This document shows, piece by piece, positions 4,544-58,687 of a stretch of 64,000 bases of DNA. Below the pieces are notes generated by a model. The model was not told the DNA's origin, made no database searches, and saw only the letters and a program-made list of their open reading frames with translations. The stretch comes from a virus (taxonomy: Duplodnaviria > Caudoviricetes): IMG/VR virus record IMGVR_UViG_3300037400_003220, positions 1-64,000 of that record; one strand, 5' to 3'. A program made the position numbers and the translations under genes. Every line of letters starts with the position of its first letter. Positions within the stretch are counted from its first letter, which is position 1.

Positions 4544-5476
4544 TTATATAAATATTATATTTTCATCTAAACTCTCATTAAGTCTAGTTCCATTTTTTAT
4601 TGCATTACCTCTATGAAGTGTTAAAACATTACCTATTTTCTTTAAGAATCTTTTTTCTGATTTATGCAAAAGGTTTATGAATTTTGAATAGTTTAGATTA
4701 AACTTATTATTTAATAGTTTAGTGACTAAATCTTTATCACTATTTTCTACAATTTTAATATCTTTTTTAAATTTAAAATAAGCCTCACAAGTTGGGCTTT
4801 TTATAATATCCGATAATTCGAACAATGGTTTTTCATTGTTAAAAAGATATTGGTATAATCCGTTTACAAACCCGTCTTGTTCAAAAGAATATGAATAATA
4901 TAAAGCCTCTGAAACAATATACTCTAAACTATTTTCATCTACATTACTTCTTATTATGTTATAAGCAATTTCGTAGTTTTTGTCTTTTGGTAACAACTCG
5001 CCAGTAAAAGTCATCTGATAACAATGCTCTAATTCATGTTGTAAATTATCTGCAGAAATTTCTTTTATTAATCCACTAGAAATTGAACATGTATGAAGAT
5101 ATATAAAAAACTTATTTCTTTCAAATAGTGGGCTAGTAGCAGAATTTTTTACAAAATTTTCATATTTTTTAAAGTTTTTATCAAAAGAGCCTTTATCCCT
5201 AAAGTCAATATTAGTTACAGTAATAATTATTTGGTAGTTACATAAAGTAAAACCAGTTATTTCAAACTGTTGTCTATATACATCACTATCATATAAAACC
5301 TTATCCTCCTTTTTAACCTTTTCACTAATAATTTGTATTATTGAATTAGTCAATGAGACGATTTCCGTACTTATTGATAGTTCTTCTTTTATCATTTCAG
5401 AAAGAACATTAGACTTTTCTTGATAAGAAATAATCTCATTTAATTGCTGCTCAGTTATTATTATATTTTTAGACAT
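4544..5476 (-). CDS. HExxH zincin-like metallopeptidase with N-terminal tag
   Basis: LQHELEHCYQ plus downstream EQDGFVNG; N-terminus MSKNIIITEQQLNEII; paralog of 57797..58687. Confidence 0.6.
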   Translation of the reverse strand: MSKNIIITEQQLNEIISYQEKSNVLSEMIKEELSISTEIVSLTNSIIQIISEKVKKEDKVLYDSDVYRQQFEITGFTLCNYQIIITVTNIDFRDKGSFDKNFKKYENFVKNSATSPLFERNKFFIYLHTCSISSGLIKEISADNLQHELEHCYQMTFTGELLPKDKNYEIAYNIIRSNVDENSLEYIVSEALYYSYSFEQDGFVNGLYQYLFNNEKPLFELSDIIKSPTCEAYFKFKKDIKIVENSDKDLVTKLLNNKFNLNYSKFINLLHKSEKRFLKKIGNVLTLHRGNAIKNGTRLNESLDENIIFI

Positions 5477-5480
5477 ATAT

Positions 5481-6446
5481 TTAGTTTATTCTAATATGTT
5501 TACTTAATAATTTTTCACCAAGACCCTTAAACGTCTTTGACGCATCTTCAAATCTCTCTTCATTTGAAACACCCCTGCTATAATCATAGTCTAACGCAGA
5601 GTATTCGCCAGTTCCACTACCATATTTCATATCTAGTTTTTTAGATGCATCATCTGGACAAGGCGGTAAATTTGCATATTTATGTGTATGGCTCTTAAAC
5701 ATTTGTAAGAACATAGTTAGGAAATTTACAAGTTCGTCTCCGTATGGAAGCGCATGTGCCTCTTTTATAATTCTTTTCATTGCCTTTTCATCATCACTGT
5801 CCTCAATCTCTCCATTTTGGTTTGCAAGTATGTCGACCGCGCCATTTCCATTATGTGAAAGTAAATTAACTTCATCGGCAACAATTGATACGCTTGTCGT
5901 ACTATCACTGTCACCGACTTTATTTATCACTGTATCGTGTTCTTTAAGTTTAATATATGCTGGATTTTGTAAATTATACACAAATCCGCTATTATCTAGA
6001 TTAAATTTACGGGCACCACAACGTATTCTCAGATCCTTATCGCCAAGAATAATATCCGTATCTCGTCTGCCATATACAGCGATTTCATCATCGTCGGCAT
6101 ATGAACCATGCGTTCGTGGATTTACGCTTGGTGCCTTAAGCGGGTTAAGATAACTACCATTTAATAATCTGCCAGCACTCGTATAGTGCGAGTCGTAGTT
6201 CATGTTTTGTGGCTGCGAAATGATCGGTCCAACGTAGAAACATTGACTATATTGGTTTTCACTCTCAAGCGTTAAAACAAGGACACTTTCGCCAACTTTT
6301 GGCTTTACGTGAAACATTTTTGGCAACAACGGAAATGCGTCTGTATATCCTTCTTTTCTTGCATCTTTCGGAAGTAATCTAACCTTAATTCTTTCACCAT
6401 CCGCTTCGTCGTAAACATTTTTAACTTCTGCTATGTATAATGCCAT
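5481..6446 (-). CDS. baseplate central spike (gp5/gpV-like)
   Basis: N-terminal OB-fold pattern (AEVKNVYDEADGERIKVRL...PKVGESVLV...FYVGPII) and C-terminal HTH metal-binding tip motif (KSHTHKY). Confidence 0.7.
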   Translation of the reverse strand: MALYIAEVKNVYDEADGERIKVRLLPKDARKEGYTDAFPLLPKMFHVKPKVGESVLVLTLESENQYSQCFYVGPIISQPQNMNYDSHYTSAGRLLNGSYLNPLKAPSVNPRTHGSYADDDEIAVYGRRDTDIILGDKDLRIRCGARKFNLDNSGFVYNLQNPAYIKLKEHDTVINKVGDSDSTTSVSIVADEVNLLSHNGNGAVDILANQNGEIEDSDDEKAMKRIIKEAHALPYGDELVNFLTMFLQMFKSHTHKYANLPPCPDDASKKLDMKYGSGTGEYSALDYDYSRGVSNEERFEDASKTFKGLGEKLLSKHIRIN

Positions 6447-6448
6447 AT

Positions 6449-7261: not shown

Positions 7262-8098
7262 TTAATTTTGGGCCATTAAACTCTCCGTATTTCGCCTGTT
7301 TATCAAACCATTCAATTGTTTACCATTTTGTGTTGTACAACTTTCTTTTATTTTAAAACAAGCATAAGCGAAATCATCTTTATTAATAGTTCCATCTTTT
7401 TCAATTCTGCAATTAGCAAGAGTCTGAAAAACTGGTGAATTTTTAAAATTTTTCCTACCACTATTATAGATTATAGATATACAGGCATCAATAAATCCTT
7501 GTGGATATAAATCCGTATTCTGTAAATATTTTGGCAAAGATTTAAACGCCTCATTCATCTCTTGTTCATAAATTTTAATATCTTCTGCAAATATAGCATC
7601 TGCTTGTTCTTGCGTTATTGATTTAGCACTCTTTAACCACTGCGGATCGTTTCCAGTTATTTTATGCCCCCACCCTATGGTTCTAATTCCTCTAACTTTT
7701 TCTTTTGGAGTTGCAAAATATGGTTCTAATTTGCACTTTTCATAATCTTTTATATGTTCTATTCCTTCTCTAGAAATCTTAAAATTGAGATATATTCTTT
7801 GTTCTATTTTCGGAATAACATCTTCATTTTCAATTTGTGCTATAATCTCCTGCTTTTGTTCTTGACTGACAGGTAAAACATTATTGATGATTGCATATAA
7901 TGAAGTAAATGATATAACGCCCATACTGGCAATGATTGCAGTTCTTCTTGCGAAATCAGAAAACGTCTTACATCCCCTATACAATGTTTGATATACCTTC
8001 TTTAAGTTAATTGATGACTCGTTTAACAACCCAGATCTTGTATATTCAAGCAAAACATAATTAACATATTGTCTCTCAGTTAAATAAACTTTTCTCAT
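7262..8098 (-). CDS. GH24 (T4-lysozyme-like) muramidase with N-terminal tag and hydrophobic segment
   Basis: ISREGIEHIKDYEKCKLEPY...RTIGWGH...ITQEQADAIFAEDI...NRRNTE; N-terminus MRKVYLTERQY...LLNESS. Confidence 0.8.
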   Translation of the reverse strand: MRKVYLTERQYVNYVLLEYTRSGLLNESSINLKKVYQTLYRGCKTFSDFARRTAIIASMGVISFTSLYAIINNVLPVSQEQKQEIIAQIENEDVIPKIEQRIYLNFKISREGIEHIKDYEKCKLEPYFATPKEKVRGIRTIGWGHKITGNDPQWLKSAKSITQEQADAIFAEDIKIYEQEMNEAFKSLPKYLQNTDLYPQGFIDACISIIYNSGRKNFKNSPVFQTLANCRIEKDGTINKDDFAYACFKIKESCTTQNGKQLNGLINRRNTESLMAQN

Positions 8099-8100
8099 AG

Positions 8101-8622
8101 TTACTCATGATATGCTTTAATACCAACCTTATTTCCGTTTTTATCAATTAAATCGTCCACTACTATTCCTGGTTCATTTGCTATTTTAGCCCACAACCCG
8201 CTTATGGCAGAATCAGATTGATTCTCTGACCAATTTTCATCATAAAAAGAACTAACTCTATTTTTAAATAGGCTACAAACTGGATAATCTTGCAAAAGGA
8301 ATGCGAGATAAAGTTTATATGCAATACCAAGTCTTCTTATTTCTTTATTAACATTGATATGTAGTTGATAGTATTGTTCGCCATTAATTTTAACCTCTTC
8401 GGCCAGGAAATTTAGAAATTTTCCATCAATTTCTTTCCCGTCAATAACTGGTGTTAGGTGAAAGAGATTTCTACTAACAGAAACGCCCGCAGGTATCTCG
8501 TTCGAAACTTCAAACTGGATATCTGACGGGTTACAAAAGATTAACTTCTGGATTGAATCATTTTTGTCAATTTCTTCCAAAAGCAACTTAGCCTGTGATT
8601 CTGTTAGAATTACCTTTCTCAT
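8101..8622 (-). CDS. GNAT-fold acetyltransferase-like protein with N-terminal tag
   Basis: Motif-A-like HINVNKEIRRLGIAYKLY; N-terminus MRKVILTESQAKLLLEE. Confidence 0.55.
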   Translation of the reverse strand: MRKVILTESQAKLLLEEIDKNDSIQKLIFCNPSDIQFEVSNEIPAGVSVSRNLFHLTPVIDGKEIDGKFLNFLAEEVKINGEQYYQLHINVNKEIRRLGIAYKLYLAFLLQDYPVCSLFKNRVSSFYDENWSENQSDSAISGLWAKIANEPGIVVDDLIDKNGNKVGIKAYHE

Positions 8623-12838: not shown

Positions 12839-13417
12839 TTAACTAATGTGTTTTTTAATTGACTCTCTAATAATTCTGTCTAATCTAGACTCTGCAACCA
12901 TTTGTTGTGGATTTTGTTGTCTACGCATCTTATTATGTGCTTGTTGTGCACCAGCCATGCGAGAGCTGAATTTAGCCTTATTCATATCACCTTGAGTAAA
13001 GAAGTCTTGGTTTTGATTATCCTGTTGCATTCCATAACCCTGGTAACGTGTATTAGAACCTCTATTTTGTGCATTTGCATTAGCCTTTTGCATGTATTGA
13101 TCAGATTTCTGTACATACTGATTATACTTTGCACGAAGATTGTTAATTTTTTGTTGCTCTTTAGCGATAACCTCCTGAGATTTTTGAATTTGTGCTTCAA
13201 TGTCTTTTTGTGCATTTTGTGCTGCTCCAGCATTGTAATCTGCAGCCAATTTATTTGCTCTTTGTGCTATACCTTGGCCAGTACTTTGTGCCGCATTTTT
13301 AACACCACCCCAAAGGTTTCCGAAAAAACCTTCATCCATACCCTCTTAGTCCATTACTTCGCTAAGACTTTCACGGATAAGTTGTTTTAATTGTGCTTCA
13401 GTTATTTTCATTTTCAT
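12839..13417 (-). pseudogene. tagged Gln/Asn-rich coiled-coil gene interrupted by an in-frame TAA (13346-13348)
   Basis: From ATG 13417: MKMKITEAQLKQLIRESLSEVMD*EGMDEGFFG..., in frame with the 166-aa ORF 12839..13339, which ends VAESRLDRIIRESIKKHIS. Confidence 0.65.
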
Positions 13418-13486
13418 AATTCGAATTATTTTTTATTATTATTTACTTATTTACATATAAATACTTTTATTGTACTCAAAAGTTCA

Positions 13487-20508: not shown

Positions 20509-21279
20509 ATGAACGTAACCTTTGATGAAAAAACGTTTAAATATATTTGTGAATCCATTCTTTGTGAGGCGCAAAACTTAGTGGATAACTTCGCTAGAGT
20601 AGAAAATCTGATGGAGTTTAATTCACCAGATGATTTCTATTTTGTCCAAATAATCAAACGATATAAAGACAATCCAGATGACAATGAGAAGGCACTTGGA
20701 ATTCAAAATGGTACATATCACGGAGGTGCCTGGTATCTTAAATCGTGGAGAATACACTCCGTTGAAGAATTGAGAGCAATAAAGAACGATGTAATAAACG
20801 AGTGTAATAAAAATAATGCAAGGGCATACATTTCGCTAAACAGCCGTTCCGAAACGGAAACAAATAACTATATTAAATTATATGTTTCAAAATTTGCCAC
20901 AGGAGATGCACGAATTGCTCATGCTGGAGATATTGTACCAGGACAGGCAAAAAGTGGCCCAGCGTGGAGAGATACAAGATTAAGATTATTCTTAGATGTA
21001 GACTGTCCTAAAGACCAAACGATATATGGTTATAATATCTGGGACGAAACAAGAGAGATGCTTAAAAAGTACAATATCAGAGTACTAGACGAGTATGAAA
21101 CACCAAGTGGTGGATTGCATATCATACTTGCAAACAAGAACAATAGAAATCTTATTCCATTTAAAAAAGAATTAATGAAATTTGATAATTGGGTTGACAA
21201 ACACTTACAAGCAACAGTTCACCCAAATGAAGATGGAAAAATTATTCTTTACTCAAATGTTAAAACAAAAGGATATTAA
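20509..21279 (+). CDS. archaeo-eukaryotic primase (AEP)-like protein
   Basis: FLDVDC (DxD) and YETPSGGLHII motifs; N-terminus ...YICESILCEA. Confidence 0.55.
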   Translation: MNVTFDEKTFKYICESILCEAQNLVDNFARVENLMEFNSPDDFYFVQIIKRYKDNPDDNEKALGIQNGTYHGGAWYLKSWRIHSVEELRAIKNDVINECNKNNARAYISLNSRSETETNNYIKLYVSKFATGDARIAHAGDIVPGQAKSGPAWRDTRLRLFLDVDCPKDQTIYGYNIWDETREMLKKYNIRVLDEYETPSGGLHIILANKNNRNLIPFKKELMKFDNWVDKHLQATVHPNEDGKIILYSNVKTKGY

Positions 21280-21310: not shown

Positions 21311-22102
21311 CTAGTTAATAACGATATTTCTTTTTATTATTGCTATTGCTTCTGGAGAGATATTATTAAATGTAAAAACGCCAAATTTATAATCTTTATC
21401 TTTATATAATTTAACTTTACCTTTTATTTTATCTAAATCAACCCTTAATACATCATAAGTCCCACCAATGTTATTATTTATTTTTCTAACCATACCCAAA
21501 CTATTGAATAGGTTTTTATCATATCGTGTGCTTAAATAGATTCTATCTGGATATTTAAATTCTGCATTCATAGATTTTGGTACTAAACCGTATTTCATTA
21601 TCCTATTAACATATACGCTAGGCGTTGCATGGTATAAAAAATCATAGTTTTCAAAAATATCGCTCGTTACATCATCACCTCCATAAGTACTTATGAAATT
21701 TAGTACATATTCACTAATGGCCGAGTTAACAATCGGTTCCTCTTTATCCATATAATAACCACATTGTTTCATAAAATTCTTTATATCACCAATTAGTTGC
21801 TTATTAGTTCCAAACGGCAAATAAATACTAACAAGGCCATCAGACACAATAACTCTGCTTTCGTGAATATTAAATTTTCTACAAATAATTCTCTTTACCT
21901 TTTCTATATCATAAGTCATTATTAAAGATTCATCCAAATAGTCATTAGGATCAATAATTTCGTCTCCATCTATGGACTGCCTTTTTAATGGTTTTGAAAC
22001 TAGTTTATTATCATTATATTCTACGACATATTGATTTTTTAAATACTCCTTTATATGTTCTTTAATTAATATTCTTAATTCTTGCTCATTTAACTGTTTC
22101 AT
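21311..22102 (-). CDS. Tpt1/KptA-like ADP-ribosyltransferase-fold protein with N-terminal tag
   Basis: FLYHATP...IMKYGLVP...RIYLST...VLRVD; N-terminus MKQLNEQELRILIKEHIKEYL. Confidence 0.6.
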   Translation of the reverse strand: MKQLNEQELRILIKEHIKEYLKNQYVVEYNDNKLVSKPLKRQSIDGDEIIDPNDYLDESLIMTYDIEKVKRIICRKFNIHESRVIVSDGLVSIYLPFGTNKQLIGDIKNFMKQCGYYMDKEEPIVNSAISEYVLNFISTYGGDDVTSDIFENYDFLYHATPSVYVNRIMKYGLVPKSMNAEFKYPDRIYLSTRYDKNLFNSLGMVRKINNNIGGTYDVLRVDLDKIKGKVKLYKDKDYKFGVFTFNNISPEAIAIIKRNIVIN

Positions 22103-23885: not shown

Positions 23886-25742
23886 TTAGCGAAGTTCGTC
23901 AATATTCCAAGTTTGAAGTCCATTACAAACCACGGCTCCGTAATAGCGAGAATTCACCATCTTCTTAGCATACCTGGTTATGATGCCCTTCACGGGTGCG
24001 AAGTTAGCAGTGTTGTAAATAGTTGGGGTTAACTGCATTGGTACGTATGGAGCGTAGATGTAACCAGTGTCAAGTAATGAATCACCCTTATGACCCATGA
24101 TTAATGACCAGTGTGGTGAATATGGATCTACATATACTTCATAACGTCCTTGGAGAGAACCAACCTTCTCAATACCCATTGAGTAAGTTACAGCCTCTGC
24201 ATTTGCATCAGATACATGGAAGTACTCAAGGTCATTCAATACTGCAGAAATTTCAGTAGAAACTACGATAAAGTTTGCACCACCACGTAAAGTTGCTTTG
24301 TGAATTTGAGCAGAAATTTGGTTAATCTTAGTCATAAGAGTTTGGTTCCAATCCTTTTGAGTGTAGTTAGTAGAGAATCCTGCTTGACGTCTCCAACCAT
24401 TGTAATCCCACTTTAATTGCCATGGAGAAGCCTTACGAAGGTCTTTCAAGATTTCACGGTCAATTTCAGCAGCAATTTGCTCAGAAAGAATAGCAGTTAA
24501 CTCAGCCTCTGCGTCGATGTTGTGGAAAGCAGCAACGTCTTGTGCAAGTTCAGGAGACCATGTAGCACGAAGTTTTCTTTCTTCAACAGAAACAGTTACA
24601 TCAGAAAGTTTGAATGAAACTTCACCGATTTCAGTTTCCAATTCGAGAGAATCATATTGTGCCCAAGCAACACGGAATAAGTCATCAGCACTCTTACCAG
24701 AAAGAACGCTCTTGTCAACACCAATATAACCGTCAATAGTTTTCTTACCTTCTAAGTCAGTTACAGGTTTAGCAAGATCCAACTCAATAAACATTTTACC
24801 GTCTGCTTCGCAGATGTCACCATATTGTACAAGACCCTTACCATATTGTTGTGCAATAGCGCGGAATCTTACAGGTTCAACAGCCTTAAATGCTGTTGTT
24901 CCACTTACTGAAGGAATTTCCTCTTTAGTAACAACGTGTAATGATGCTAAGAATGCTTCTGTATCCATTTCGCAACCATCAGGGCCGATAAGACGACCAG
25001 CGCCAATGTTAGCAAAACCCTTAACTGCTACAAGGATGTTACGGATAGTACCGTCATTGTGCTCTCTAAGAGTTAATGTATCTGCACTAACGGTTTCGCC
25101 ATTGTGACGTAATTTAGTAGCCTCTAAGTTACCTACTTTGATATGAATTTTACCCTTTGATTGATCGAAAAGGCCATCGTTGTAGAATAAATCATAAAGA
25201 GATTTCTTGAAATATCTAACTACGTCTGGGCCAACAGTCTTACCGCTTTCATCCTCAACGAAATTAACAACTTCGTCTGGAAGATAATAAGTATTAACCT
25301 TCTCGCCAGTTCTGCGGTCGATACCTTCTTTACCCATTAAGCCAAAGTGACTGCCTTCCCATGTCTTATTACCATTTTCTTCAACTTCTTCCCATTTACG
25401 CTCAGAAGTAACAGGAAGGATAAAGAACAATTTACCAATAGGCATGTTCATAGCCTGAACAGATACGATATCATTAGCCAAAAGACGTGAGAATACACGG
25501 CGAACCAATGGGAATACAACAGTTTCGAAAGAACCACTGTTTTGAGCATCGGTAGCCTCGTTTAACATCATGTTGGCCTCGTTCTCATAAAGAGTTGCTA
25601 AGTTATCTTTCAAATAACCATCAAGACCTTTAGTAAAGCCCATACCTTCCCAACGCTCGCGGATGAGTTGACGTGCTTCGGCCTGTTTGCCAGTAGAGAT
25701 ATTACCTACTTGGCCTTCATTTAAAAATTGTAATTTATTCAT
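23886..25742 (-). CDS. major capsid protein (T4 gp23-like)
   Basis: VFPLVRRVFSRLLANDIVSVQAMNMPIG, RKLRATWSPELAQDVAAFHNIDAEAELTAILSEQIAAEIDREI, YAPYVP, TRYAKKMV. Confidence 0.95.
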   Translation of the reverse strand: MNKLQFLNEGQVGNISTGKQAEARQLIRERWEGMGFTKGLDGYLKDNLATLYENEANMMLNEATDAQNSGSFETVVFPLVRRVFSRLLANDIVSVQAMNMPIGKLFFILPVTSERKWEEVEENGNKTWEGSHFGLMGKEGIDRRTGEKVNTYYLPDEVVNFVEDESGKTVGPDVVRYFKKSLYDLFYNDGLFDQSKGKIHIKVGNLEATKLRHNGETVSADTLTLREHNDGTIRNILVAVKGFANIGAGRLIGPDGCEMDTEAFLASLHVVTKEEIPSVSGTTAFKAVEPVRFRAIAQQYGKGLVQYGDICEADGKMFIELDLAKPVTDLEGKKTIDGYIGVDKSVLSGKSADDLFRVAWAQYDSLELETEIGEVSFKLSDVTVSVEERKLRATWSPELAQDVAAFHNIDAEAELTAILSEQIAAEIDREILKDLRKASPWQLKWDYNGWRRQAGFSTNYTQKDWNQTLMTKINQISAQIHKATLRGGANFIVVSTEISAVLNDLEYFHVSDANAEAVTYSMGIEKVGSLQGRYEVYVDPYSPHWSLIMGHKGDSLLDTGYIYAPYVPMQLTPTIYNTANFAPVKGIITRYAKKMVNSRYYGAVVCNGLQTWNIDELR

Positions 25743-25778: not shown

Positions 25779-27179
25779 TTAATGTCTTTTATTACCTTTG
25801 TAGAGATTTTCCATTCTTTCCATCAAGTTGATACTTGCGTTATCCTTTGGTGAATAGATTTTAGTCTCATTAATTGTTTTTGAAGATTCAGCACTGATTG
25901 TTCTCTCAACAATAGGAGCACCCTTTCTTGTTTCGTTAAGTTCGCGCTTAATAGTATCATAAAGTTGTGTACCCTCGTTTATTGTCTTAACGTTGCTAAA
26001 ACGCTCTACAATACTAGCCTTTTCTTCTTTAGTTGTTGTTTCGTTTACAAGTAAACTTACAACTTTGCCGTAATTGATGTTTAAGATAGCAGCCTCATAA
26101 AGTGCTTTCTTAATTTCAGCAATTTTAGATTTATATTGTTTATTTTCGGCTTGGATTTCCTTGGCCTTGCTGATGATTTTTTTAACACTCTCATTCAATG
26201 GAGAATCAACTTTTAATACTTCTTCTGGGGTATTTGGCCTGTGTTGTTTATGTTTAGTCTTAACTTCTTTTCTTGCAGCCTGAGTTGCAATAGAATCGCC
26301 CTCTTCAAGTGGTTGTTCATCTCCAGTTGGCGCCATACCGCATTCATTAACTTTTTTGTCGAATGGGTCAGAATCGCCATTACCAGCCCAAGGTTTCTTA
26401 GCATCCTTTGGAGCGCCACCGTCCCAGTCGTTAGTTGTCTTAGAGTCGGCTGGTTCTTCCATTGAAAGTCCGTCGATTGGATCTTTGTCTTGATAATTAT
26501 CGGTATAACCTAAATCCTCATTCAAAGCCTCTTCGTCCTCTTCATGTTCACCTTCTTCTGGTTCCTCGTCGTCAAGGTCTATTTCAAATGTAGCCTCTTC
26601 GTCGTCAACTGGCTCCTCGTCAACTGGTTCTTCATCAGCATCAGCGGCATCAGCATCCTCGTCACCTTCGTTACCTAGTTCGATCACATATTCTGCGCCA
26701 GTGTCTTCATCTTCCATAGTGAATGTACCATCGTCTTCTTTCTTAATGAAAATTTGGTCATCATCACCAAGTTTGTTGTACACTTTGAGAGCAGTCTCTC
26801 CGTCCACGCCTGTGAAATCATAATCATTGTCTCCTACCTTGAAATCTTCCATATCAGCCCATTCATCTTCGGCGTCACCCTCTTCAGGTTCTGTCTCGCC
26901 TTCTCCTTCAGCGTCTTCTGCTGGGGTCTCTTCCTCGGCTGGTGTCTCTGGATCCTCCTCGGTTTCAACATCCTCTACTTCAAAACTATCGTCCTCGATA
27001 GGTTCTTCCTCTTTTTCGAGTTTTTCGTCATCTACTGGCTCATCTTCATCCTTGATGAAGTCACTAATAGCCTCATTAACGATACTCTTAAGAGTCTTCT
27101 CTGTGCTTTCTTTTAATGCTTTAGAGATTTGTTCTGCATTAAGTAAAGCCTTTTCTGCCGTATTATTTTTCTTTGCCAT
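25779..27179 (-). CDS. prohead scaffolding protein (T4 gp22-like)
   Basis: Very acidic middle region, C-terminal coiled coil, many [LIV]NE sites, immediately upstream of the MCP. Confidence 0.8.
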   Translation of the reverse strand: MAKKNNTAEKALLNAEQISKALKESTEKTLKSIVNEAISDFIKDEDEPVDDEKLEKEEEPIEDDSFEVEDVETEEDPETPAEEETPAEDAEGEGETEPEEGDAEDEWADMEDFKVGDNDYDFTGVDGETALKVYNKLGDDDQIFIKKEDDGTFTMEDEDTGAEYVIELGNEGDEDADAADADEEPVDEEPVDDEEATFEIDLDDEEPEEGEHEEDEEALNEDLGYTDNYQDKDPIDGLSMEEPADSKTTNDWDGGAPKDAKKPWAGNGDSDPFDKKVNECGMAPTGDEQPLEEGDSIATQAARKEVKTKHKQHRPNTPEEVLKVDSPLNESVKKIISKAKEIQAENKQYKSKIAEIKKALYEAAILNINYGKVVSLLVNETTTKEEKASIVERFSNVKTINEGTQLYDTIKRELNETRKGAPIVERTISAESSKTINETKIYSPKDNASINLMERMENLYKGNKRH

Positions 27180-36696: not shown

Positions 36697-37857
36697 TTAC
36701 TCCCCGCCTAATTCACTTTCGGTAAAATAACCATCAACTATTATTTCTTTTTCCTTTCTCTTATCTGCTAAATCCTTTTCAAACGATTGATAGTCTGAAT
36801 CATATTTGATTTTACTCATGATTTTATCCATACCATCTCTACCCAATTTAGTTCCAACCAATACCTCATCCATTAATGTGTTAAATTTCTCATTATCTAA
36901 TGACATTAACTTTTGAAGCAGTTTTTCGGTATAGGTGTCATCAAATTCTTCGCCACATATACTATTCCAAAACACTCGGCCTAAAATCATATAGTATGGT
37001 TCATCCTGTAATGTATCACAGCGATTAACTATATAATCTGCTCGTTTTTCTGGTAACGTGTTAAAAGTTAAAGCCTCAATACATCCGCGAATGGCTTCTG
37101 TTAATAAGAATGGAAATATTATACCTTCAGCAAGAATCTTGATATAATTTGATGAATCATCAACGGAAGTTTCAACATAAGCATCCTGCTGATTGTTATC
37201 ATCTGTTATCTCGTCGTGTTTGATTAATAACAAGTAATTATTAATTTTGATGATCTTTGTATATAAGTAAGGTAACTCCTCGTCTAACTCAAAAATCTCT
37301 TTAACACATTTTGTTAATAAATTGTCTGTTAATTCCAATGCCGCGCCAATTGTAATTGCGTTTGTATAACGTCTTCTAACTTCATCACTATCTTCATCAT
37401 TTATTTCATCAATACTATCATACTCAACTGGTACTTTCGTATCTGGTTTTACATGAAAGTCTTTTGATTGAGGAATAGAAGTTACAAGATTACATTCAAG
37501 TTCCAATTCTTTTCCATTTAATTCAAATAATGACAACACAATATCAGCACAAAGTTTTTCCAACTCTGCCTTAATCTTATTCTCTTTTTTTTGACAAATA
37601 AGGATTAACTTATTAAGTTTGTTCTCAATCTTATCGACTGGAAAATTTGTTATATCGTCTGAAAAAGAACTTACCGCGTTTTCATAAGCCGCCTCTAACA
37701 TGCGCATGATTGCTTCATCTATAAAAGACTTGTCACTTGATAACGGAAATTGCTTATTATGAACAGCATTTATCAGCCAAGAAGGTAATTCTCGGTTGTT
37801 TTCTAATGATTCTTTAATAAGTCTATATTGTTCTTTATTTATGAATATGTTTTTCAT
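36697..37857 (-). CDS. tagged hypothetical (putative head-internal) protein
   Basis: N-terminus MKNIFINKEQYRLIKESLE; lies in the core-protein cluster. Confidence 0.6.
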   Translation of the reverse strand: MKNIFINKEQYRLIKESLENNRELPSWLINAVHNKQFPLSSDKSFIDEAIMRMLEAAYENAVSSFSDDITNFPVDKIENKLNKLILICQKKENKIKAELEKLCADIVLSLFELNGKELELECNLVTSIPQSKDFHVKPDTKVPVEYDSIDEINDEDSDEVRRRYTNAITIGAALELTDNLLTKCVKEIFELDEELPYLYTKIIKINNYLLLIKHDEITDDNNQQDAYVETSVDDSSNYIKILAEGIIFPFLLTEAIRGCIEALTFNTLPEKRADYIVNRCDTLQDEPYYMILGRVFWNSICGEEFDDTYTEKLLQKLMSLDNEKFNTLMDEVLVGTKLGRDGMDKIMSKIKYDSDYQSFEKDLADKRKEKEIIVDGYFTESELGGE

Positions 37858-38156
37858 TTCAAATCTTTCTTTCTAACAGAATAAGAACTCTCTTTTAGAT
37901 ATTTTAACTTTGCTTCTTTTAGTTGCTTCTTGGTAACCGCTTCGCTTATACCAGCATTTTGCCTTAATGAATCAGCCGAAAATCCAACACTCACGCCTTT
38001 TTGTGTGTCAACACCTTGACTTTGTGCCGAGTCAATAGTGTTTTGTGCGGCACTTTTTAATTCTTTTGTCTGTGCAAGTTGCTCATCGCCACTTAATTGT
38101 ATTTCACTTAGCATACACTCTGCTAATTGTTCTTCAGTAAATAAAACTCTTTTCAT
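37854..38156 (-). CDS. small prohead core-like protein
   Basis: MKRVLFTEEQLAECMLSE...ISEAVTKKQLKEAKLKYLKESS; start set at 38156, downstream of the late motif at 38179-38186. Confidence 0.6.
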   Translation of the reverse strand: MKRVLFTEEQLAECMLSEIQLSGDEQLAQTKELKSAAQNTIDSAQSQGVDTQKGVSVGFSADSLRQNAGISEAVTKKQLKEAKLKYLKESSYSVRKKDLK

Positions 38157-40390: not shown

Positions 40391-42946
40391 CTACTTTATT
40401 GTATTAATTTTATCAAAAGTTATTCTTTTTAAGTCTACTAACTTACCAATATACCCCAAACGCCTAAGTGTTTTGAATATAATATTACCATTTCCTAGTT
40501 CAGATCCATTCTTTAGTGAATCCTTCCTCATTCCTTTTATTTTATCGAATAAACACTTAACTTTTTTGGATAAAATGTCTAATTTCGCCTCATCTTTTTC
40601 TCCATTACACTCATCTTCTAAAGAGTCAATTTTATCGATAATATTTTTAGTTTTATGTGTTATACATTCTTTATCTAATTTTACTGCGGTGAGATTATCT
40701 CTCTCTGGCTCTCTTAACCATTTGTCTTTCTCTAATGAATATACTCCAGAGGCTGTATGTTCTTCACTCTCATCTTGTACATATAATTCAACTGGATAAC
40801 CGTATATTTTTAAATCTTCGTGTTGGTTATTCCAAATTGTCTTCTTTGAATCGAAATAATCTTTTACAAATTCAACCCTGTCATCAACTTCTTTAAAATC
40901 AACTACAATATGTAGATCGATATCTGAAAATTTACTCCAGTTATAATTTGCTAGACTACCAGTCATAATAATATCTTTTGGCTTGACCCAATTTACTTCC
41001 ATTGAATCAAAGAATGTGTCGGCAATATCTAGCAAACGCAATCTAACTCTTGAGTTTAATTTTCCGTTAATCCAGAATTTTGGATTTAATTGTTTTTGGA
41101 CATCGAATGATTGCAAAACATCGCCCAACTCATTATCATCGACAAACTCATCAATGCTTTCCCTAGTTAAAAATGGTATCGTATTTTTATCCTCGTATTC
41201 CGATACGACGTCATCAAAAGTTTCGTCAATTACATGAATATAGTCGCCATCGTCTCCGAGTAATAATTTTTTCTTATTGTAAAAATCAACCATTTCGTTT
41301 AGTTTCTTTTTCTTTATTTCATTATATTCTGAGAATGGTTTCCTCTGTTTATACCCATCATAAAGCCACTCCCTGAAATCATCTATAGAAACCTCTGTTA
41401 CCTTACCAAGTCCTTTCCATCCTTTATTGTAGTTTGATAGATAAGCCTTTTTTGCTTCTTCTTCTGTTTTAAAGCCAAACATAATTTTAGTTTCATCGAA
41501 TTTACCATTAATTACCTGGTCAATAGCAAATATTGTCTTGCAATCTAAATCCTTACCTAAAAATACATCAACGGCATCGCCATCAACCGCCTTTGTATGT
41601 GTGAAATAACCATAGTCGTTATGCATTAGACATTTCCACGCTTTTCCGTTTTTATCTTTACCTTTTCTATAACTACCCTTTGGGTTTTCTATTGCGATTT
41701 CGAAACCATATATATTAACTCTACCCATCTTATAATTACCTGCCTCTTTCTGTCCTTCTGTTGGGGTTGTATTGGTTTCTTTTCTTGCTTTTTCTAATTC
41801 TTTTTTAATATAAGACAATTGAGATTCTGTTAAATATACCTTTTTAGTGGTCATCATTGAATATTCTTCTTTTATTATTTTATCTAACCATTTTTTTACG
41901 CTTTCTAAATGATTTTTACAATCATCCATATCATAATGCCCGCCATTCTTTTTGAACTCGTCGTCTATAACGGCACAACAAATGTCATCATCCTCCATGC
42001 TTTGAGTATGATATATTTCATAGTCGTCTCCGAAAACTTTTTTTAGAATATGCACATAATGCTCGGCCATTTCAAGCGGTTCCTTGTCCTCACCATAATA
42101 TTTAGGTAATTTACCATCTTTAATCATGTCACGAACTGCTTTTCTTACTTTTTCTTCAAGATTTTTATCCACCGATTCGTTAATCACACTCTCATCTACA
42201 TATCTTAATGCATTGTATTGTGCCATTGGCATTTCTTTCCCATTGCTCATAGTTAATTTCTTTCCTAATAATTTATCCCTTGTAAGTCTAAAATCAGCCG
42301 TCGCCTTACTCTTATCCTGTGGAGACATCATGTGAAGAATAGCCTGCTTTGTATTATCCTCAATTTCGTCATCGCCAGGCATAAAACTATTGTATTCTAT
42401 TAGAGGTCTACTTCCGTTAATAATAAAAATTCGTCTATCAAATAAATGACTATCTCGACATACTTGATATACTATTTCATTTGTTAATTCCATAGGATAT
42501 CTGTTCATATACCAAAAACCAAACACCACACAATTTTGATTAATATATGGTACATCAATTATAAAATATCTACCCTTAATAACAAACTCCTCATCCGCAA
42601 AATCCAAATATTTACCAGTTTTGTAATAGTCTTGATTTATGTACTCATCCTCTCTTTTGTATCCTGTAATATCACTTGGCTTATATCCTCTGTTTGCTAA
42701 ATATTCTTGAACCTCTGGCCTTAACTGATCATGGATACTTCCTGGTTCGCCGTAAAACAATTTATTTTCATTTCTAAATCTTAAATAAACAAAAGGAATC
42801 GCGTTATCTTGCATATAGTCTTGTTGCCCACAGAAAAATATTTCATCTGGGGTATTGAAGTTGTTTTTCGAATTCTCTACTGACAACTTAAACAAATCAA
42901 TCATGTTCTTTCTCTTTTGCTTATCGTTTAATTCTAACTTCTTCAT
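40391..42946 (-). CDS. polyprotein: unknown N-terminal modules, InPase-like domain, Pol-beta-type nucleotidyltransferase
   Basis: EAGNYKMG...IAIENPKGSYR...YGYF...DGDAVDVFLG...FDETKIMFGF; TGSLANYNWSKFSDIDLH...VELYVQD. Confidence 0.75.
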   Translation of the reverse strand: MKKLELNDKQKRKNMIDLFKLSVENSKNNFNTPDEIFFCGQQDYMQDNAIPFVYLRFRNENKLFYGEPGSIHDQLRPEVQEYLANRGYKPSDITGYKREDEYINQDYYKTGKYLDFADEEFVIKGRYFIIDVPYINQNCVVFGFWYMNRYPMELTNEIVYQVCRDSHLFDRRIFIINGSRPLIEYNSFMPGDDEIEDNTKQAILHMMSPQDKSKATADFRLTRDKLLGKKLTMSNGKEMPMAQYNALRYVDESVINESVDKNLEEKVRKAVRDMIKDGKLPKYYGEDKEPLEMAEHYVHILKKVFGDDYEIYHTQSMEDDDICCAVIDDEFKKNGGHYDMDDCKNHLESVKKWLDKIIKEEYSMMTTKKVYLTESQLSYIKKELEKARKETNTTPTEGQKEAGNYKMGRVNIYGFEIAIENPKGSYRKGKDKNGKAWKCLMHNDYGYFTHTKAVDGDAVDVFLGKDLDCKTIFAIDQVINGKFDETKIMFGFKTEEEAKKAYLSNYNKGWKGLGKVTEVSIDDFREWLYDGYKQRKPFSEYNEIKKKKLNEMVDFYNKKKLLLGDDGDYIHVIDETFDDVVSEYEDKNTIPFLTRESIDEFVDDNELGDVLQSFDVQKQLNPKFWINGKLNSRVRLRLLDIADTFFDSMEVNWVKPKDIIMTGSLANYNWSKFSDIDLHIVVDFKEVDDRVEFVKDYFDSKKTIWNNQHEDLKIYGYPVELYVQDESEEHTASGVYSLEKDKWLREPERDNLTAVKLDKECITHKTKNIIDKIDSLEDECNGEKDEAKLDILSKKVKCLFDKIKGMRKDSLKNGSELGNGNIIFKTLRRLGYIGKLVDLKRITFDKINTIK

Positions 42947-43446: not shown

Positions 43447-44460
43447 TTAATATTCATCTTCATTATTATCAAAACTAACCCATTCTTCATCCTCAAACCA
43501 TTGTAACCACTGATTAATTGTGTCTTCGTCGACCCACTGGAAAATACAGTCTAACATCTGTTGTGCACCAATTCTTTCTTCTACTTGATTCCACTTATCA
43601 ACTATTTCGTTGTCCATTGTCCCTTCATTAAGCGCTCTCATAATACTTTCTTTAATGAGTTGTTTTAATTGGTCTTCTTTAATTGTAGTTTTCTTTGATT
43701 CAACAACATATGATAATGGGTCTTTACCATTAGTGATATATTCCTCTATTCTGTTTGCTATTTTCTGGTAGGTTTGATTCTTGTTGTCTTTTTTAAACTG
43801 TCTCAAAATATCCCTAAATCCAACATTGTGGCCTCCACCTTCTGAACTTCCACCAACCCAGAATGGAATTCTTGCTTGTATTGCTCTTAACACAGCTTCA
43901 TCGTGAATAATTTCATCTGGAGCAATATTTAATGCATCACCTAAGTCTAATAATTTATTCTTGATGAGTTCAAGGTGCTCGTTGTCAAATTTCTTTGTGT
44001 TTTTAAGAATATATTGTATTTCTCTTACTGGGATTCTTATTTTTTGTACGTTATCATAAACATTAGCAAACTCTTCTTTGTTCTTACCAAATCTATTAGT
44101 ATCGGTAAAAATAGCGCCACCAGCAATGTTTTTCTTAGCCAAATACATATCTGTATTTCGTATAAATTGCTGCATTTTCTTAATTGACTCATCTCCTGGA
44201 ACTTCCCTACCGTTAATTAAAAAACGAGTTCTTAAGTCCTCGATGATGTTATTAATAGTATCGACTTGCTTTGGATTTTTATTGTTAGCATCCATTTGTT
44301 TTTGTAAAGCGGTCTTTTTTGCCTTCTTTACTGGTTCTTGCAAGCCTTGTTCAGCGGCTCTCTTCGCCATAATTTCTTTTTTCCTCTGGGCATCCTCCCT
44401 TCTTTGCTGTGCAAATTCGTATTCGTCCCAGCTTGTAAATCTTTCGTTAACGTTAGCCAT
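43447..44460 (-). CDS. hypothetical two-module protein with internal tag
   Basis: VVESKKTTIKEDQLKQLIKESIMRALNEG precedes a short acidic C-terminal module. Confidence 0.65.
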   Translation of the reverse strand: MANVNERFTSWDEYEFAQQRREDAQRKKEIMAKRAAEQGLQEPVKKAKKTALQKQMDANNKNPKQVDTINNIIEDLRTRFLINGREVPGDESIKKMQQFIRNTDMYLAKKNIAGGAIFTDTNRFGKNKEEFANVYDNVQKIRIPVREIQYILKNTKKFDNEHLELIKNKLLDLGDALNIAPDEIIHDEAVLRAIQARIPFWVGGSSEGGGHNVGFRDILRQFKKDNKNQTYQKIANRIEEYITNGKDPLSYVVESKKTTIKEDQLKQLIKESIMRALNEGTMDNEIVDKWNQVEERIGAQQMLDCIFQWVDEDTINQWLQWFEDEEWVSFDNNEDEY

Positions 44461-44553: not shown

Positions 44554-46083
44554 ATGTATAGTAAAGCAACATATATAAAACCATATCTTAAAAAGTTCAT
44601 AAGAGTATTGGGTATAGAAAATGTTGGAACACTTAATAAGCCAAAGATGAATGTAGTCTATGCAATACTCGCTAATAATAACATTAGGCCAATTGATAGG
44701 AATAAATATGGTGTACCATTATTTCAGTATAGAGACTTGGATGGATTAAACGATTTGAGTATTTCATATGGATTCCGCAAGTGGAAAGATGACATGTTGA
44801 AAAAAGATATAGAAATGAGCATGAGAGATAATAAAAAAGTACATACACAAAGAAAGCAAAAAAAACCAGATACACAAACAACAATCTCTTTTGTTGACGA
44901 AAGAGATGAACAATTATACGAAAGTTTATTTGGTAGAAAAGTGTATTTCACAGAAAGTCAGATAAAAAATATTGTTGATAAAGAGAAGTACATCGAAAAC
45001 GACTACAATGAAAAGTGGGAGAGACAAGATATAAATTCTGATATATTCAAAACAATTAAATCAAAGTTAGATTTTGATAATAACTCAAATTTAGGCCTTG
45101 CTGATGTAGCAAAAGTTGTTGGAGGAGAGTGTACAGAGCCAGGCGACACACCAAATTATATCGCATTCATTAGAGGAGGTCTTAATGGTAGTGGTGATTG
45201 GAAGGACTATCTGACGGATATGATTACAATTATCAAAAAAATTAATGGTAGTTATATTATTGATTTGGACGTTGATGTACCAGACGACGTATGGACTCTT
45301 AAATTAGGCTTCTATAAAGAAAAATTAAATGAGGGCGCAAGTGGATACGAACCAGAGGATAGTGACTCATACTTCGATTTATGCTATGAGTTGTCTGAAA
45401 ATATATTTGAAGGCTTATTAAAACATATTGACAAAAATCTCAAAGTAAAAAACGACAATGCAATATACACATATCTCGGAATAATCAACCATATGTTAAA
45501 GGTAAATGAGTTACACGCTCCTTTACGTTATGAGAACAAAGATTTAGGCAAGGACGAACGTCTCGGAGTAAAGATAATCAAGAAATGCATAGAAGGATAC
45601 AATTATTTATTTTCGGATAAAAAAGAAAATAGACAGGGGTGGAAAGACTTCAAAGAATATAAACGCAGTCTAACTATACAGTACAAAATTTTCAAAGAAT
45701 TGATGAAAATGTTAAATTATGATTCAGATGTTGATATTGTGTTAACAGAACCATATCATTTAAGGGAATCAAAAAACTTTGTTGAGCCACAAAAAGTATT
45801 GGTTGTTAAAAAATTCTTGGATGATAACTTTGTTAGGGCCGCAATTCCAACAATAGGCGAAGATGGATATTCTAAAACAATATTAATCGTTGGAATGAAA
45901 GGGACTGACGGCCAGGTAAATAGAAATATGTATGCACAGCAACTGTTTGATTTACTACAAGATAAGTTTCAAAATATTTACCTAGATAAAGAAAAACGAG
46001 ATAATTTCTTAAAACGAGTTATGAAAGACTGGTACGATAAGAAAATATCAAAAGACGGTTTATTAAGTGTAAACACATTTTAA
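44554..46083 (+). CDS. hypothetical multi-module protein with internal tags
   Basis: QLYESLFGRKVYFTESQIKNIV, KLNEGAS, HLRESK separate apparent modules. Confidence 0.65.
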   Translation: MYSKATYIKPYLKKFIRVLGIENVGTLNKPKMNVVYAILANNNIRPIDRNKYGVPLFQYRDLDGLNDLSISYGFRKWKDDMLKKDIEMSMRDNKKVHTQRKQKKPDTQTTISFVDERDEQLYESLFGRKVYFTESQIKNIVDKEKYIENDYNEKWERQDINSDIFKTIKSKLDFDNNSNLGLADVAKVVGGECTEPGDTPNYIAFIRGGLNGSGDWKDYLTDMITIIKKINGSYIIDLDVDVPDDVWTLKLGFYKEKLNEGASGYEPEDSDSYFDLCYELSENIFEGLLKHIDKNLKVKNDNAIYTYLGIINHMLKVNELHAPLRYENKDLGKDERLGVKIIKKCIEGYNYLFSDKKENRQGWKDFKEYKRSLTIQYKIFKELMKMLNYDSDVDIVLTEPYHLRESKNFVEPQKVLVVKKFLDDNFVRAAIPTIGEDGYSKTILIVGMKGTDGQVNRNMYAQQLFDLLQDKFQNIYLDKEKRDNFLKRVMKDWYDKKISKDGLLSVNTF

Positions 46084-56376: not shown

Positions 56377-56397
56377 TAGAATATAGGAGATTTTTAA

Positions 56398-57759
56398 ATG
56401 TTGAAAATAGAACATGTAAAAGTATATGACTTGGAAGAGTCAATAGTTGCATCAGGATATGCAATGGGTATATCTTTAGATGATTTTAAAGGTAGAATTG
56501 AAAATTTGAAATATTGGTTATCATTTGATAATTTTTTGCCCGATTTTTTAGATTTTTTTGAAAAACAAAACACTAATATTGGTGAAAATACTCGGCACTC
56601 ATGTATTAAATGCGGTGTAATGAATGGTAATTCTAAATTTAGTGATGGTAATTATTATTGCCGTAGGCATAAAAAACAAATGAAAAATTTAGGGCACACG
56701 ATAGACGACGTTGTTTACACAATCAACGGCTTAACGACTGATATTGATGTTCTAGGTAGAGATAGTGAAGTTAGACGTGTTACTGTAAGCACAATTGATT
56801 TACCTCTTATATTCGGAAATAATTTATCAATAAGTAAATCACAAGGCTATTTGATTGTGAATAATAAAACATTTCAATCGATATTGAAAGAAACAATTAC
56901 GGATGATGATAATATGGTGTTGGATCATATAGACAAAAATGGTTCAAATAATACAAGAGAAAATTTACGCCTTTGTTTATTTAGGGAAAACATGAGAAAT
57001 CAAGGACGAATTAAAGTCAATGACAATATTACTGGCGTTAATTATAAATCAGATATTAAAAGATGGGTTGCTAATATTACATTAAACTATCGTAGTGTTT
57101 ATATTGGCAAATATCGCACTAAAGAAGAGGCTATAAAAGCAAGGTTACAAAAAGAATCAGAAATTTATGGTGAGTTCTCTCCAAATATTGAATTATTTGA
57201 TAAATACAACATACAAAAACCAGAAATATCACATTTACCAGTAGAAAACTATGATTTGATGCTAGCAATAAAAGATTTTAAAAGAATTCTGAAATTAAAT
57301 AAAGCATCGAAAACAAGTGATGTTAAATGCCATGATAATTGGTTAACTGGCGTAAGGGTATCATTTGACTTAATATATCCGCAATATATTAGTCCTGAAT
57401 TGCAAAGGTATCATTGGATTGATATTGTTACGAGTAGTTCAAAAATGCATAGATTAACTAAAATGTCATTAAAAAATTCATGCAATGAATATGTTACTAG
57501 TGAAATAATAGAGAAAGTACAAGGTTATATTGATGAATATAATGCTAATCCAACATATGAATCATTCATGAAAGTACTAAGTAACACACCACTAGGGTTA
57601 CAACTTTTTGAACATATTGACACGAATTACAAACAACTACAAACGATATACTTCCAAAGGAAACACCATAAATTACGCGAGGATTGGGGTGCATTTATCG
57701 AATTTATTGAAAAACTACCATACGCAAAAGAATTAATTATTGGAGAAATAACTGACTAA
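56398..57759 (+). CDS. ThyX-like flavin-dependent thymidylate synthase family protein with in-frame HNH-AP2 nuclease insertion
   Basis: HDNWLTGVRVSFDL...LQRYHW...SSSKMH...TNYKQL...QRKHHKLREDW; insert has DHIDKNGSNNTRENL and an AP2 domain. Confidence 0.65.
   Translation: MLKIEHVKVYDLEESIVASGYAMGISLDDFKGRIENLKYWLSFDNFLPDFLDFFEKQNTNIGENTRHSCIKCGVMNGNSKFSDGNYYCRRHKKQMKNLGHTIDDVVYTINGLTTDIDVLGRDSEVRRVTVSTIDLPLIFGNNLSISKSQGYLIVNNKTFQSILKETITDDDNMVLDHIDKNGSNNTRENLRLCLFRENMRNQGRIKVNDNITGVNYKSDIKRWVANITLNYRSVYIGKYRTKEEAIKARLQKESEIYGEFSPNIELFDKYNIQKPEISHLPVENYDLMLAIKDFKRILKLNKASKTSDVKCHDNWLTGVRVSFDLIYPQYISPELQRYHWIDIVTSSSKMHRLTKMSLKNSCNEYVTSEIIEKVQGYIDEYNANPTYESFMKVLSNTPLGLQLFEHIDTNYKQLQTIYFQRKHHKLREDWGAFIEFIEKLPYAKELIIGEITD
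56581..57222 (+). mobile_element. HNH + AP2 homing-endonuclease module fused in frame (boundaries approximate)
   Basis: CxxC...C..H zinc motif, HNH motif, TGVNY...WVANI...YIGKYRTKEEAIKAR...E.EIYGEFS. Confidence 0.7.
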
Positions 57760-57796
57760 ATGTCGGCTGTTTTTCTATTTATAAAAAAATGAACTT

Positions 57797-58687
57797 ATGA
57801 CAATTAACGAAGTATATAAAAAACGAGTGAACAAGATGATATGTGAGGAGTATGGTATTTCTGACAAACTTCACTATGACATTATACCAAGATTCGTAAA
57901 ACAATTAAAATCAAGTATAAAAAATACTGGTTTTGCAACAAGCACACATTTTAAAGAAGGCGAATTCGAGTTTAATTGTTGTGATGATAAGAATACCATA
58001 TTTAAAGTAAGGTGGCTTGCTTATTTTTTTAATAACATAGACGAGTATAACAACCATGTTAAAAAATACAGTACTGGTCTTAACTATGTTATGTATGACT
58101 TCAAAATGTTTAGACTTACATTATTTTATATAGACGGAAAACCCGTAAATAACGAAATGTATGACACTATTGGCCACGAATTTGAACATGTGTACCAGAA
58201 CATCCTAATGGGAAAACAATTTGGTAATAAAAAAATATATGCCATTGCCATTTCCAATGTATTTTCCAAAAATCGATATGACAGAAATCTTGCCCGTATA
58301 ATATATGCATCAACTAAATCAGAACAAGAAGGATTTATTAATGGTTTTTATAGTCAATTTGTTAATGGTGATTTAAACACATTAGATATAGACAAAGAAA
58401 TCGAAAATTCGGAATGTGGTGTGTGGCTTAAAAATTTATACGATGACTATATGTTCTTAAAAGAACACAACGATGAAAATATGCAGGAGGCAATTAAGAA
58501 ATATAAAAACATTAAAGACTACTACAACTACAAGTATTTCTTATATATGGCAAGAAATGGTATTAAAAATCTTGAGAGAAGAATTGCCAGGTTGACATAT
58601 AAAATTAAAAAAGATATATATATCCATTCAGAGCCAAAACTAAACGAGGATTTCAATCCGCTAAATAATTTTTTTCTAATACAATAA
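57797..58687 (+). CDS. HExxH zincin-like protein, paralog of 4544..5476
   Basis: IGHEFEHVYQ...EQEGFINGFY; own late motif at 57776-57782. Confidence 0.6.
   Translation: MTINEVYKKRVNKMICEEYGISDKLHYDIIPRFVKQLKSSIKNTGFATSTHFKEGEFEFNCCDDKNTIFKVRWLAYFFNNIDEYNNHVKKYSTGLNYVMYDFKMFRLTLFYIDGKPVNNEMYDTIGHEFEHVYQNILMGKQFGNKKIYAIAISNVFSKNRYDRNLARIIYASTKSEQEGFINGFYSQFVNGDLNTLDIDKEIENSECGVWLKNLYDDYMFLKEHNDENMQEAIKKYKNIKDYYNYKYFLYMARNGIKNLERRIARLTYKIKKDIYIHSEPKLNEDFNPLNNFFLIQ

Follow-up and report, generated by a model that had tools for sequence, protein, structure and literature searches.

We consider it reasonably probable that a short peptide carried by about 16 otherwise unrelated, probably late proteins of an uncultured, T4-related virus of the Caudoviricetes is a longer, lineage-specific counterpart of the capsid-targeting propeptide of phage T4, read by the S77 prohead protease. 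The virus is represented by IMG/VR record IMGVR_UViG_3300037400_003220, a single contig of 90,892 bp (~32% G+C), and the window analyzed here is its first 64 kb. The peptide, hereafter the tag, has the core M-K-x-[VI]-x-[LI]-[TN]-E-x-Q-L-x-x-[LI]-[IV]-[KR]-E-[SA], often extended by I-x-x-V-L-x-E, and is 17-25 residues long. By sequence it is not a member of the T4 capsid-targeting sequences (CTS), yet it appears to work like one. An earlier note on this DNA had read the tagged proteins as a head-loaded, injected effector set. That idea stands in so far as the T4 analogy is now backed by several independent sequence-level lines, and it appears not to hold for two carriers (36697-37857 and 37854-38156) that look like core components rather than effectors because they are conserved and occupy the slot of T4 prohead-core genes 67 and 68. 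The carriers fall into two classes: conserved prohead-core-like proteins encoded next to the protease gene, and a fast-changing enzyme set comprising a lysozyme, an InPase + NTase protein, a Tpt1/KptA-like ART-fold protein, an AEP-like protein, and probable GNAT and HExxH proteins.

A recurrent peptide on unrelated proteins

All 11 motif occurrences quoted in the earlier note were recovered in position and frame. N-terminal tags were found at 5476, 8098, 8622, 13417, 22102, 37857, and 38156, all on the minus strand, and internal ones at ~41792-41848, 43636-43695, and 44932-44991 (+), with a partial tag at 27781-27831. Our census of the window comprises seven open reading frames (ORFs) with an N-terminal tag, four with an internal tag, and one with a degenerate tag. 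The remaining 27 kb of the contig hold three to four further N-terminal tags, those at 71375 (-), 90030 (-), and 90329 (+) having been found with a profile made from the window tags. Over 30 tags of several phages, the consensus reads M-K-x-[VI]-x-[LI]-[TN]-E-x-Q-L-[RK]-x-[IL]-[IV]-[KR]-E-[SA]-I-x-x-V-L-x-E.

The regular expression [KR].[VILM][VILFY][VILFM]?[TN]E.Q matched the called genes six times, whereas 2000 composition shuffles gave 0.09 matches on average, and four matches stood at the N-terminus against 0.001 expected; the expression was composed after the motif had been seen, and the observed/expected ratio is indicative only. The ending [LIV][LIV][KR]E[SA] was observed 11 times where 1.3 were expected. 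The carriers are mutually unrelated, as had been proposed: once the tag was removed, no pairwise BLAST similarity was left (all E-values >0.1). Selection on the tag acts at the protein rather than the DNA level, because its conserved columns use up to six synonymous Leu codons and four Thr codons and the peptide is maintained across genomes of 29-40% G+C.

A tblastn search of cultured phages with a 30-residue tag gave chance-level matches only. A profile search of 5.8 billion proteins with a 42-residue tag alignment returned 52 weak matches, mostly relatives already in the input, almost none of them with Pfam domains. Our literature search found no paper describing the tag, and found capsid-targeting papers only for T4, phiKZ-like phages, and P1.

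Candidate cleavage sites and the head protease

The head genes are of T4 type, with a gp23-type major capsid protein (MCP; phrog_138 match, 2e-64), a portal at 9560-12712, a large terminase at 18420-20300, and a scaffold-like gene followed by the MCP gene in the order of T4 genes 22-23. The closest cultured MCP relatives, at 35-39% identity, are those of Flavobacterium phage immuto and Microcystis phage Mel-JY01. In alignment, the N-H-P histidine (His101) and the G-V-S-S-R-G serine (Ser164/165) of the S77 protease are invariant with the catalytic residues of T4 gp21.

The three conserved glutamates of the tag ([LI]-T-E, [LI]-[IV]-x-E, and V-L-x-E) all fit the [LIV]-x-E specificity of S77 proteases, and sites of the [ILV]xE type that had been claimed for the MCP, scaffold, and protease were seen in all three. 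When MCP N-termini were aligned, the T4 gp23 site F-L-T-E/A-E-I-G-G (a slash marks the candidate or known cut) shared its column with M-L-N-E/A in this MCP, predicted from sequence to be the maturation site after residue 61, and with I-L-K-E/A, L-L-N-E/A, L-I-N-E/A, and I-V-S-E/A in relatives. The protease has its own G-L-L-I-E/S and L-I-K-E/S sites at the N-terminus, where G-[LI]-L-[IT]-E is conserved throughout the lineage and resembles the L-I-E-9 site of T4, and the N-terminus of the scaffold-like protein contains the tag-like stretch E-Q-I-S-K-A-L-K-E/S.

We compared the tag with the N-termini of T4 proteins (NC_000866), namely gp24 (M-A-K-I-N-E-L-L-R-E-S), Alt (M-E-L-I-T-E-L-F-D-E), gp22 (M-L-K-E-Q-L-I-A-E-A), gp21 (...Q-L-L-I-E), and the internal proteins (M-K-T-Y-Q-E-F-I-A-E). 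The closest resemblance is to the gp24 propeptide. The tag also resembles the ITE-6 site of Alt, where mass spectrometry showed that gp21 cuts, as it does at LTE-619 (PMC5694885). In T4, CTS propeptides of 10-20 residues bring all internal head proteins into the core (PMC5694885); for targeting, ten residues at the start of IPIII are enough, and the CTS is a means of loading varied proteins in T4-like phages (PMC9026906, section 2.6). A complex prediction from scaffold and tag alignments scored 0.00 and, having been run without controls, speaks neither for nor against binding.

The tag has a propeptide-like architecture

AF2 models the tag of 21311-22102 as a helix set apart from the rest of the protein (residues 6-22); disorder follows to about residue 61, a tether of ~40 residues, and then comes the folded domain. 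Close homologues of this protein are tagged; distant ones are untagged and start at a conserved L-x-E-[GS]-L-I. The 20509-21279 protein, whose family counts 460 cluster representatives, bears a degenerate tag in this phage and a clear tag in a 242-kb relative. Among the best 150 of the 460 representatives, 58 start directly at [IV]-D-N-F-D and another 58 have an N-terminal extension, which in many cases is the tag. The element L-x-E/[AG] ends within 12 residues before the domain in 19 extensions, most often 3-4 residues before it, and judging from these alignments a cut there would give a protein of nearly the same length as the free-standing homologues. The same element forms the linker in polyproteins of 500-770 aa that join an ART-like domain to a domain of the 20509-21279 type.

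Relatives and turnover of the tagged cargo

The 242-kb relative (G001; MCP 73% identical, rated 68% complete) gave 16 profile matches at E <0.3, and a local search raised the number to ~25, almost all of them at a Met start; C-terminal tag copies occur there as well. Positions 1-54 kb of the window are syntenic with 135-176 kb of G001, where most of the tagged cargo has no counterpart. The slot bounded by the orthologues of 8622-9530 and 6449-6898 contains tagged genes in both phages, but with unrelated cargo. Such turnover at syntenic slots recalls the hypervariable genes for internal proteins in T-even phages (PMC9026906, section 3.1). Proteins of the lineage are also present on contigs of 364-374 kb. 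Because such contigs exist and relatives reach 242 kb, the 90.9-kb record probably covers only part of the genome of a jumbo phage.

In the uncultured phage LR756508 (484 kb), M-[KR]-[LI]-[ST]-E-x-[KQ]-L-R-x-I-[VI]-[KR]-E-E-I begins at least 19 small ORFs, which form a cluster around the MCP gene. Three ORFs are tagged in the cultured Flavobacterium phage vB_FspM_immuto (MW353176), namely genes 176, 190, and 198, and gene 198 lies between the portal and protease genes. No tags were found by the profile in Mel-JY01 and two other relatives, which supports the specificity of the profile. When IMG/VR was scanned with a strict degenerate DNA pattern, 14 places matched, and 11-12 of them are true tags. 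All lie in large low-G+C contigs; an S77 protease is encoded in 7/14 of these fragmentary records, once directly adjoining a tagged gene.

Tagged genes lie in probable late units

The tag is found in 9/33 genes of the minus-strand late block vs 0/51 plus-strand early/metabolic genes (p = 1e-4). The motif is therefore not equally frequent in early and metabolic genes; equal frequency was the outcome that the earlier note had named as speaking against its reading.

An (A/G)TATTTATA box lies about 24-52 nt upstream of the portal, scaffold, protease, and several other structural genes, with copies on the minus strand of the window at 9554, 12744, 13463, 27228, 28330, 30999, 33229, 38186, 40369, and 44503, and elsewhere on the contig at 71401 and 90059. 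Judged from its position, it is a candidate late promoter of the lineage, analogous to the T4 TATAAATA box. The TATTTATA box is also found ahead of the ORF at 13417 and of three tagged genes (38156, 71375, and 90030), and the remaining tagged genes lie within putative late units headed by it. The genes at 71375 and 90030 stand isolated and opposite in orientation to the otherwise plus-strand region of 64-91 kb. In G001, the box precedes 5/15 tagged vs 29/276 untagged genes (p = 0.02).

Domains of the tagged proteins

Several folds had been assigned to the carriers. Pfam supported the GH24 lysozyme, the InPase, and the NTase, and an ART-superfamily fold was found for 21311-22102; GNAT and HExxH were reached at the motif level and AEP at the level of structural matches only. 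The lysozyme domain of 7262-8098 matches PF00959 at 3e-17. The protein encoded by 40391-42946, in the late structural block, matches a DarB-like PHROG and contains an InPase domain of the polyvalent-protein type (PF18823, 2.4e-49) and an NTase domain (NTP_transf_2, 2.1e-6, residues 652-729), the latter module being a separate 301-aa gene in G001. No peptidase family was found in this 851-aa ORF by Pfam or PHROGs, no structural search for one having been made. The InPase domains of polyvalent proteins are predicted to be packaged in the virion (Iyer et al. 2017, PMC5512222).

In structure, the 21311-22102 domain is most similar to Tpt1/KptA 2'-phosphotransferases, members of the ART superfamily (Foldseek E = 7.5e-6). 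For 20509-21279, the domain model is confident (pLDDT 92). A Foldseek search of this model against the PDB gave no clear match, and its only whole-domain VIA-align matches are AEP primases (RepB', Z 7.4; PriS, Z 6.8; S-2L PrimPol, Z 6.2), values that fall within the range of common folds; the model is thus suggestive of an AEP-like fold. The GNAT reading of 8101-8622 and the HExxH reading of 4544-5476 rest on motifs and language-model leads and are probable. Sequence searches of Pfam, PHROGs, NCBIfam, and the PDB gave nothing for 4544-5476, 8101-8622, 36697-37857, 43447-44460, and 44554-46083.

The 20509-21279 family is repeatedly fused behind an ART-like domain (P0062, P0065, P0091, P0103, and P0104), and this repeated fusion suggests that the two domains form a functional pair. 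The ART-like domain is related to the 671-aa product of 14627-16642 (-), which has weak PARP and WG-repeat matches and a short leader ending in K-K-L-L-E/S; its G001 homologue starts with ...N-I-I-S-E/A. Possibly, this protein is a packaged ART of the Alt type whose leader is shorter.

Proposed route and alternative explanations

If the tag acts as a capsid-targeting propeptide, the amphipathic helix would, late in infection, give affinity for the assembling scaffolding core, and the tagged protein would be enclosed by the gp23-type shell. The phage's own gp21-like protease would then remove the tag at up to three [LIV]-x-E sites, as the sequence-level match of these sites suggests, and would also cut the internal copies joining the modules of polyproteins. 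The mature cargo would stay in the head and would probably be ejected with the DNA, by analogy with IPI-III and Alt of T4. Several points weigh against this proposal. We infer packaging, cleavage, and ejection of the tagged proteins from sequence and by analogy. Sequence similarity between the tag and the T4 CTS M-K-T-Y-Q-E-F-I-A-E is not significant, and the two resemble each other at the motif level only. The tripeptide [LIV]-x-E is common, occurring 571 times in the proteome vs 466 in shuffles, and the site match taken alone is weak; moreover, the conserved helix spans the first two candidate sites and could be purely structural. The co-occurrence with S77 proteases in IMG/VR has no proper base rate, as the two clearly false pattern matches also lie in S77-positive contigs. 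Per-gene enrichment of the TATTTATA box in this genome is not significant (3/10 tagged genes vs 23/98), because most tagged genes lie inside operons. Finally, the tagged lysozyme has a membrane-like hydrophobic segment of ~25 residues between tag and catalytic domain and could be either an ejected wall-degrading protein or an ordinary lysis enzyme, and the latter would count against the proposal.

Some of these observations would fit a tag that is an assembly helix of prohead-core or scaffold parts only, later degraded or retained, with no injected effectors. Such a helix would suit the two conserved proteins at the T4 core gene 67/68 position, both tagged in G001, the tag-like stretches of the scaffold, protease, and MCP propeptide, and the tag on immuto gene 198 between portal and protease genes. 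This is unlikely, however, as most carriers are enzyme-like and differ between close relatives, untagged free-standing homologues exist for two cargo families, and InPase-type domains are predicted to be injected elsewhere (PMC5512222). One could also regard the tag as a general N-terminal amphipathic helix, used for instance for oligomerization, membrane or DNA association, or docking outside the capsid, in which the [LIV]-x-E sites are incidental. That the final L-x-E/[AG] is fixed 3-4 residues ahead of the start of untagged homologues, that the tag ending matches an MCP maturation site homologous to a proven T4 site, and that the tag is limited, as far as sampled, to late units and to lineages with T4-type heads make this improbable, even though the hydrophobic periodicity extends past the first two glutamates, [LIV]-x-E is frequent by composition, and the lysozyme carrier has a membrane-like segment. 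A DNA- or RNA-level feature, for example a linker through which cassettes recombine or an element at the 5' end of late genes that enhances translation initiation, would account for the swapping of cargo at syntenic slots and for the tag-only remnants at 13349-13417 and ~90174-90264. We find it very hard to reconcile with the spread of synonymous codons (up to six for Leu and four for Thr) in conserved columns, with a peptide kept over genomes of 29-40% G+C, and with tags that are also internal and C-terminal. A capsid-targeting propeptide is the explanation that we retain.

Comparison with known systems

The capsid targeting sequence of T4 was reportedly the subject of work by Mullaney and Black in 1996. 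The CTS of IPI, IPII, IPIII, and Alt and the propeptides of gp24, gp22, gp67, and gp68 are removed by the gp21 (S77) protease (PMC9026906; PMC5694885; PMC3012670). The tag shares with the CTS that it is a short N-terminal peptide common to unrelated proteins and ending in hydrophobic-x-Glu; that an S77 protease and a gp23-type capsid are encoded, with similar N-terminal sites in scaffold and protease; that the cargo is hypervariable between relatives and includes an ART-fold enzyme; and that some proteins also have C-terminal sites, as Alt does. It differs in being longer (17-25 vs 10 residues), predicted to be helical, and provided with two or three candidate sites. The carriers are also more numerous, with ~16 in 91 kb and 16-25 in the 242-kb relative vs a handful in T4. 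In addition, the cargo here is mostly enzyme-like, tag copies stand between polyprotein modules, and the system is known from sequence alone.

Polyvalent proteins (PMC5512222) offer a second comparison. The product of 40391-42946 similarly joins InPase and NTase domains, proteins of 500-770 aa combine homologues of 20509-21279 with an ART-like domain, and delivery of the domains along with the DNA is predicted in both systems. Here, in contrast, most domains are separate genes, each tagged, and the processing proposed is by the head-maturation protease at tag-like linkers, whereas theirs is by an embedded metallopeptidase (MPTase). The pol-beta NTase domain is listed only for polyvalent proteins of conjugative elements (PMC5512222).

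In the phiKZ-like giant phages SPN3US and 201phi2-1, propeptides of ejection and inner-body proteins are cut by a diverged gp21 homologue (PMC5694885, PMC10052503). There too, a T4-related protease cleaves numerous proteins inside the head after Glu, and propeptide sites are redundant; however, the propeptides are mostly >100 residues long and not one shared portable peptide, the cleavage motif has small residues before Glu, and the phages form a separate lineage.

Positions of the tags and neighboring genes

The tags and the head genes that bear on them are listed in Table 1. In addition, 37854-38156 has a weak PHROG match to 'virion structural protein', and the G001 homologue of 44554-46083 has an identical tag layout.

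The tag ORF at 13417 and the Gln/Asn-rich ORF behind it are the two parts of a split gene. Relatives in the same 90% cluster encode one tagged protein of 190-192 aa and read Glu at the position of the in-frame TAA (13349-13351), which ruled out a stand-alone tag peptide or a read-through site at 13417. As far as the sequence tells, the TAA is a nonsense change or a sequencing error, and the cargo could here be produced only untagged, from the Met at 13339. The C-terminus of 12839-13339 has a second tag-like peptide, E-S-R-L-D-R-I-I-R-E-S-I-K-K (12842-12892), and no orthologue of this ORF was found in G001, G002, or LR756508. A second tag-only remnant lies at ~90174-90264 (+) of the contig. A frame break within an A-run separates its ATG from a complete tag, which runs into a stop after ~31 codons; upstream of the remnant there is a TATTTATT box.

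Two HNH-type homing endonuclease genes were observed within the head-gene block, at 22118-23677 (-) (phrog_559, 4e-100) and 31036-32382 (-) (phrog_559, 2.5e-93); one adjoins the MCP gene and the other the protease gene.

Table 1. Tags and associated head genes in the window.
Feature	Position	Strand	Remarks
N-terminal tag, 310-aa ORF 4544-5476	5426..5476	-	Cargo with HExxH motif (HELEH, residue 147)
N-terminal tag, 278-aa ORF 7262-8098	8048..8098	-	Cargo: hydrophobic segment (~50-77), then GH24 lysozyme domain (118-272)
N-terminal tag, 173-aa ORF 8101-8622	8572..8622	-	Cargo GNAT-like, at motif level only
Gln/Asn-rich cargo of split gene	12839..13339	-	In frame with the 13349-13417 tag ORF
Tag-only 23-codon ORF, ending at in-frame TAA	13349..13417	-	Late box 13456-13463
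Degenerate tag, 256-aa ORF 20509-21279	20509..20577	+	Residues 1-23, ending I-L-C-E/A
N-terminal tag, 263-aa ORF 21311-22102	22052..22102	-	Isolated helix in model
MCP, T4 gp23-type	23886..25742	-	
Acidic scaffold-like protein	25779..27179	-	Directly upstream of MCP
Internal partial tag E-N-T-L-V-R-L-I-R-E-S-I, 320-aa ORF 27316-28278	27781..27831	-	Directly after DUF3008 domain
Prohead protease S77 (T4 gp21-like)	32463..33188	-	PF03420, 6.6e-18 (above cut-off); phrog_207, 1e-30
N-terminal tag, 386-aa ORF 36697-37857	37807..37857	-	Conserved; G001 orthologue tagged; upstream of protease
N-terminal tag, 100-aa ORF 37854-38156	38106..38156	-	Conserved, tagged in G001; own late box
Internal tag (residues 367-385), 851-aa polyprotein 40391-42946	41792..41848	-	Immediately before InPase domain (398-528)
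Internal tag (residues 256-275), 337-aa ORF 43447-44460	43636..43695	-	
Internal tag G-R-K-V-Y-F-T-E-S-Q..., residue 127 of 509-aa ORF 44554-46083	44932..44991	+	After acidic linker

Significance

The widest form of the proposal is a tentative one, which we hold to be possible but rather doubtful. One helical tag would mark the whole head-loaded, injected repertoire, 15-25 proteins per genome, across a large clade of T4-related jumbo phages that have low-G+C hosts and are mostly uncultured. This repertoire would turn over fast and would include AEP-like and Tpt1/KptA-like enzymes not known to be injected by phages, and the protease would also process polyproteins at tag-like linkers. If this is true, injected counter-defense arsenals could be readable directly from metagenomic sequence.

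If the tag is CTS-like, a mechanism known from a few small T4 proteins would extend to dozens of enzyme cargoes, single-domain tagged genes would be linked to polyvalent proteins, and a natural packaging signal for foreign proteins would be at hand in the heads of non-coli phages. The idea can be tested directly in a cultured relative that has the tag, Flavobacterium phage vB_FspM_immuto. With a CTS-like tag, a simple sequence rule would list the proteins that abundant uncultured phages carry into the cell before gene expression, proteins that form the first line of host takeover and counter-defense and are otherwise invisible in genomes.

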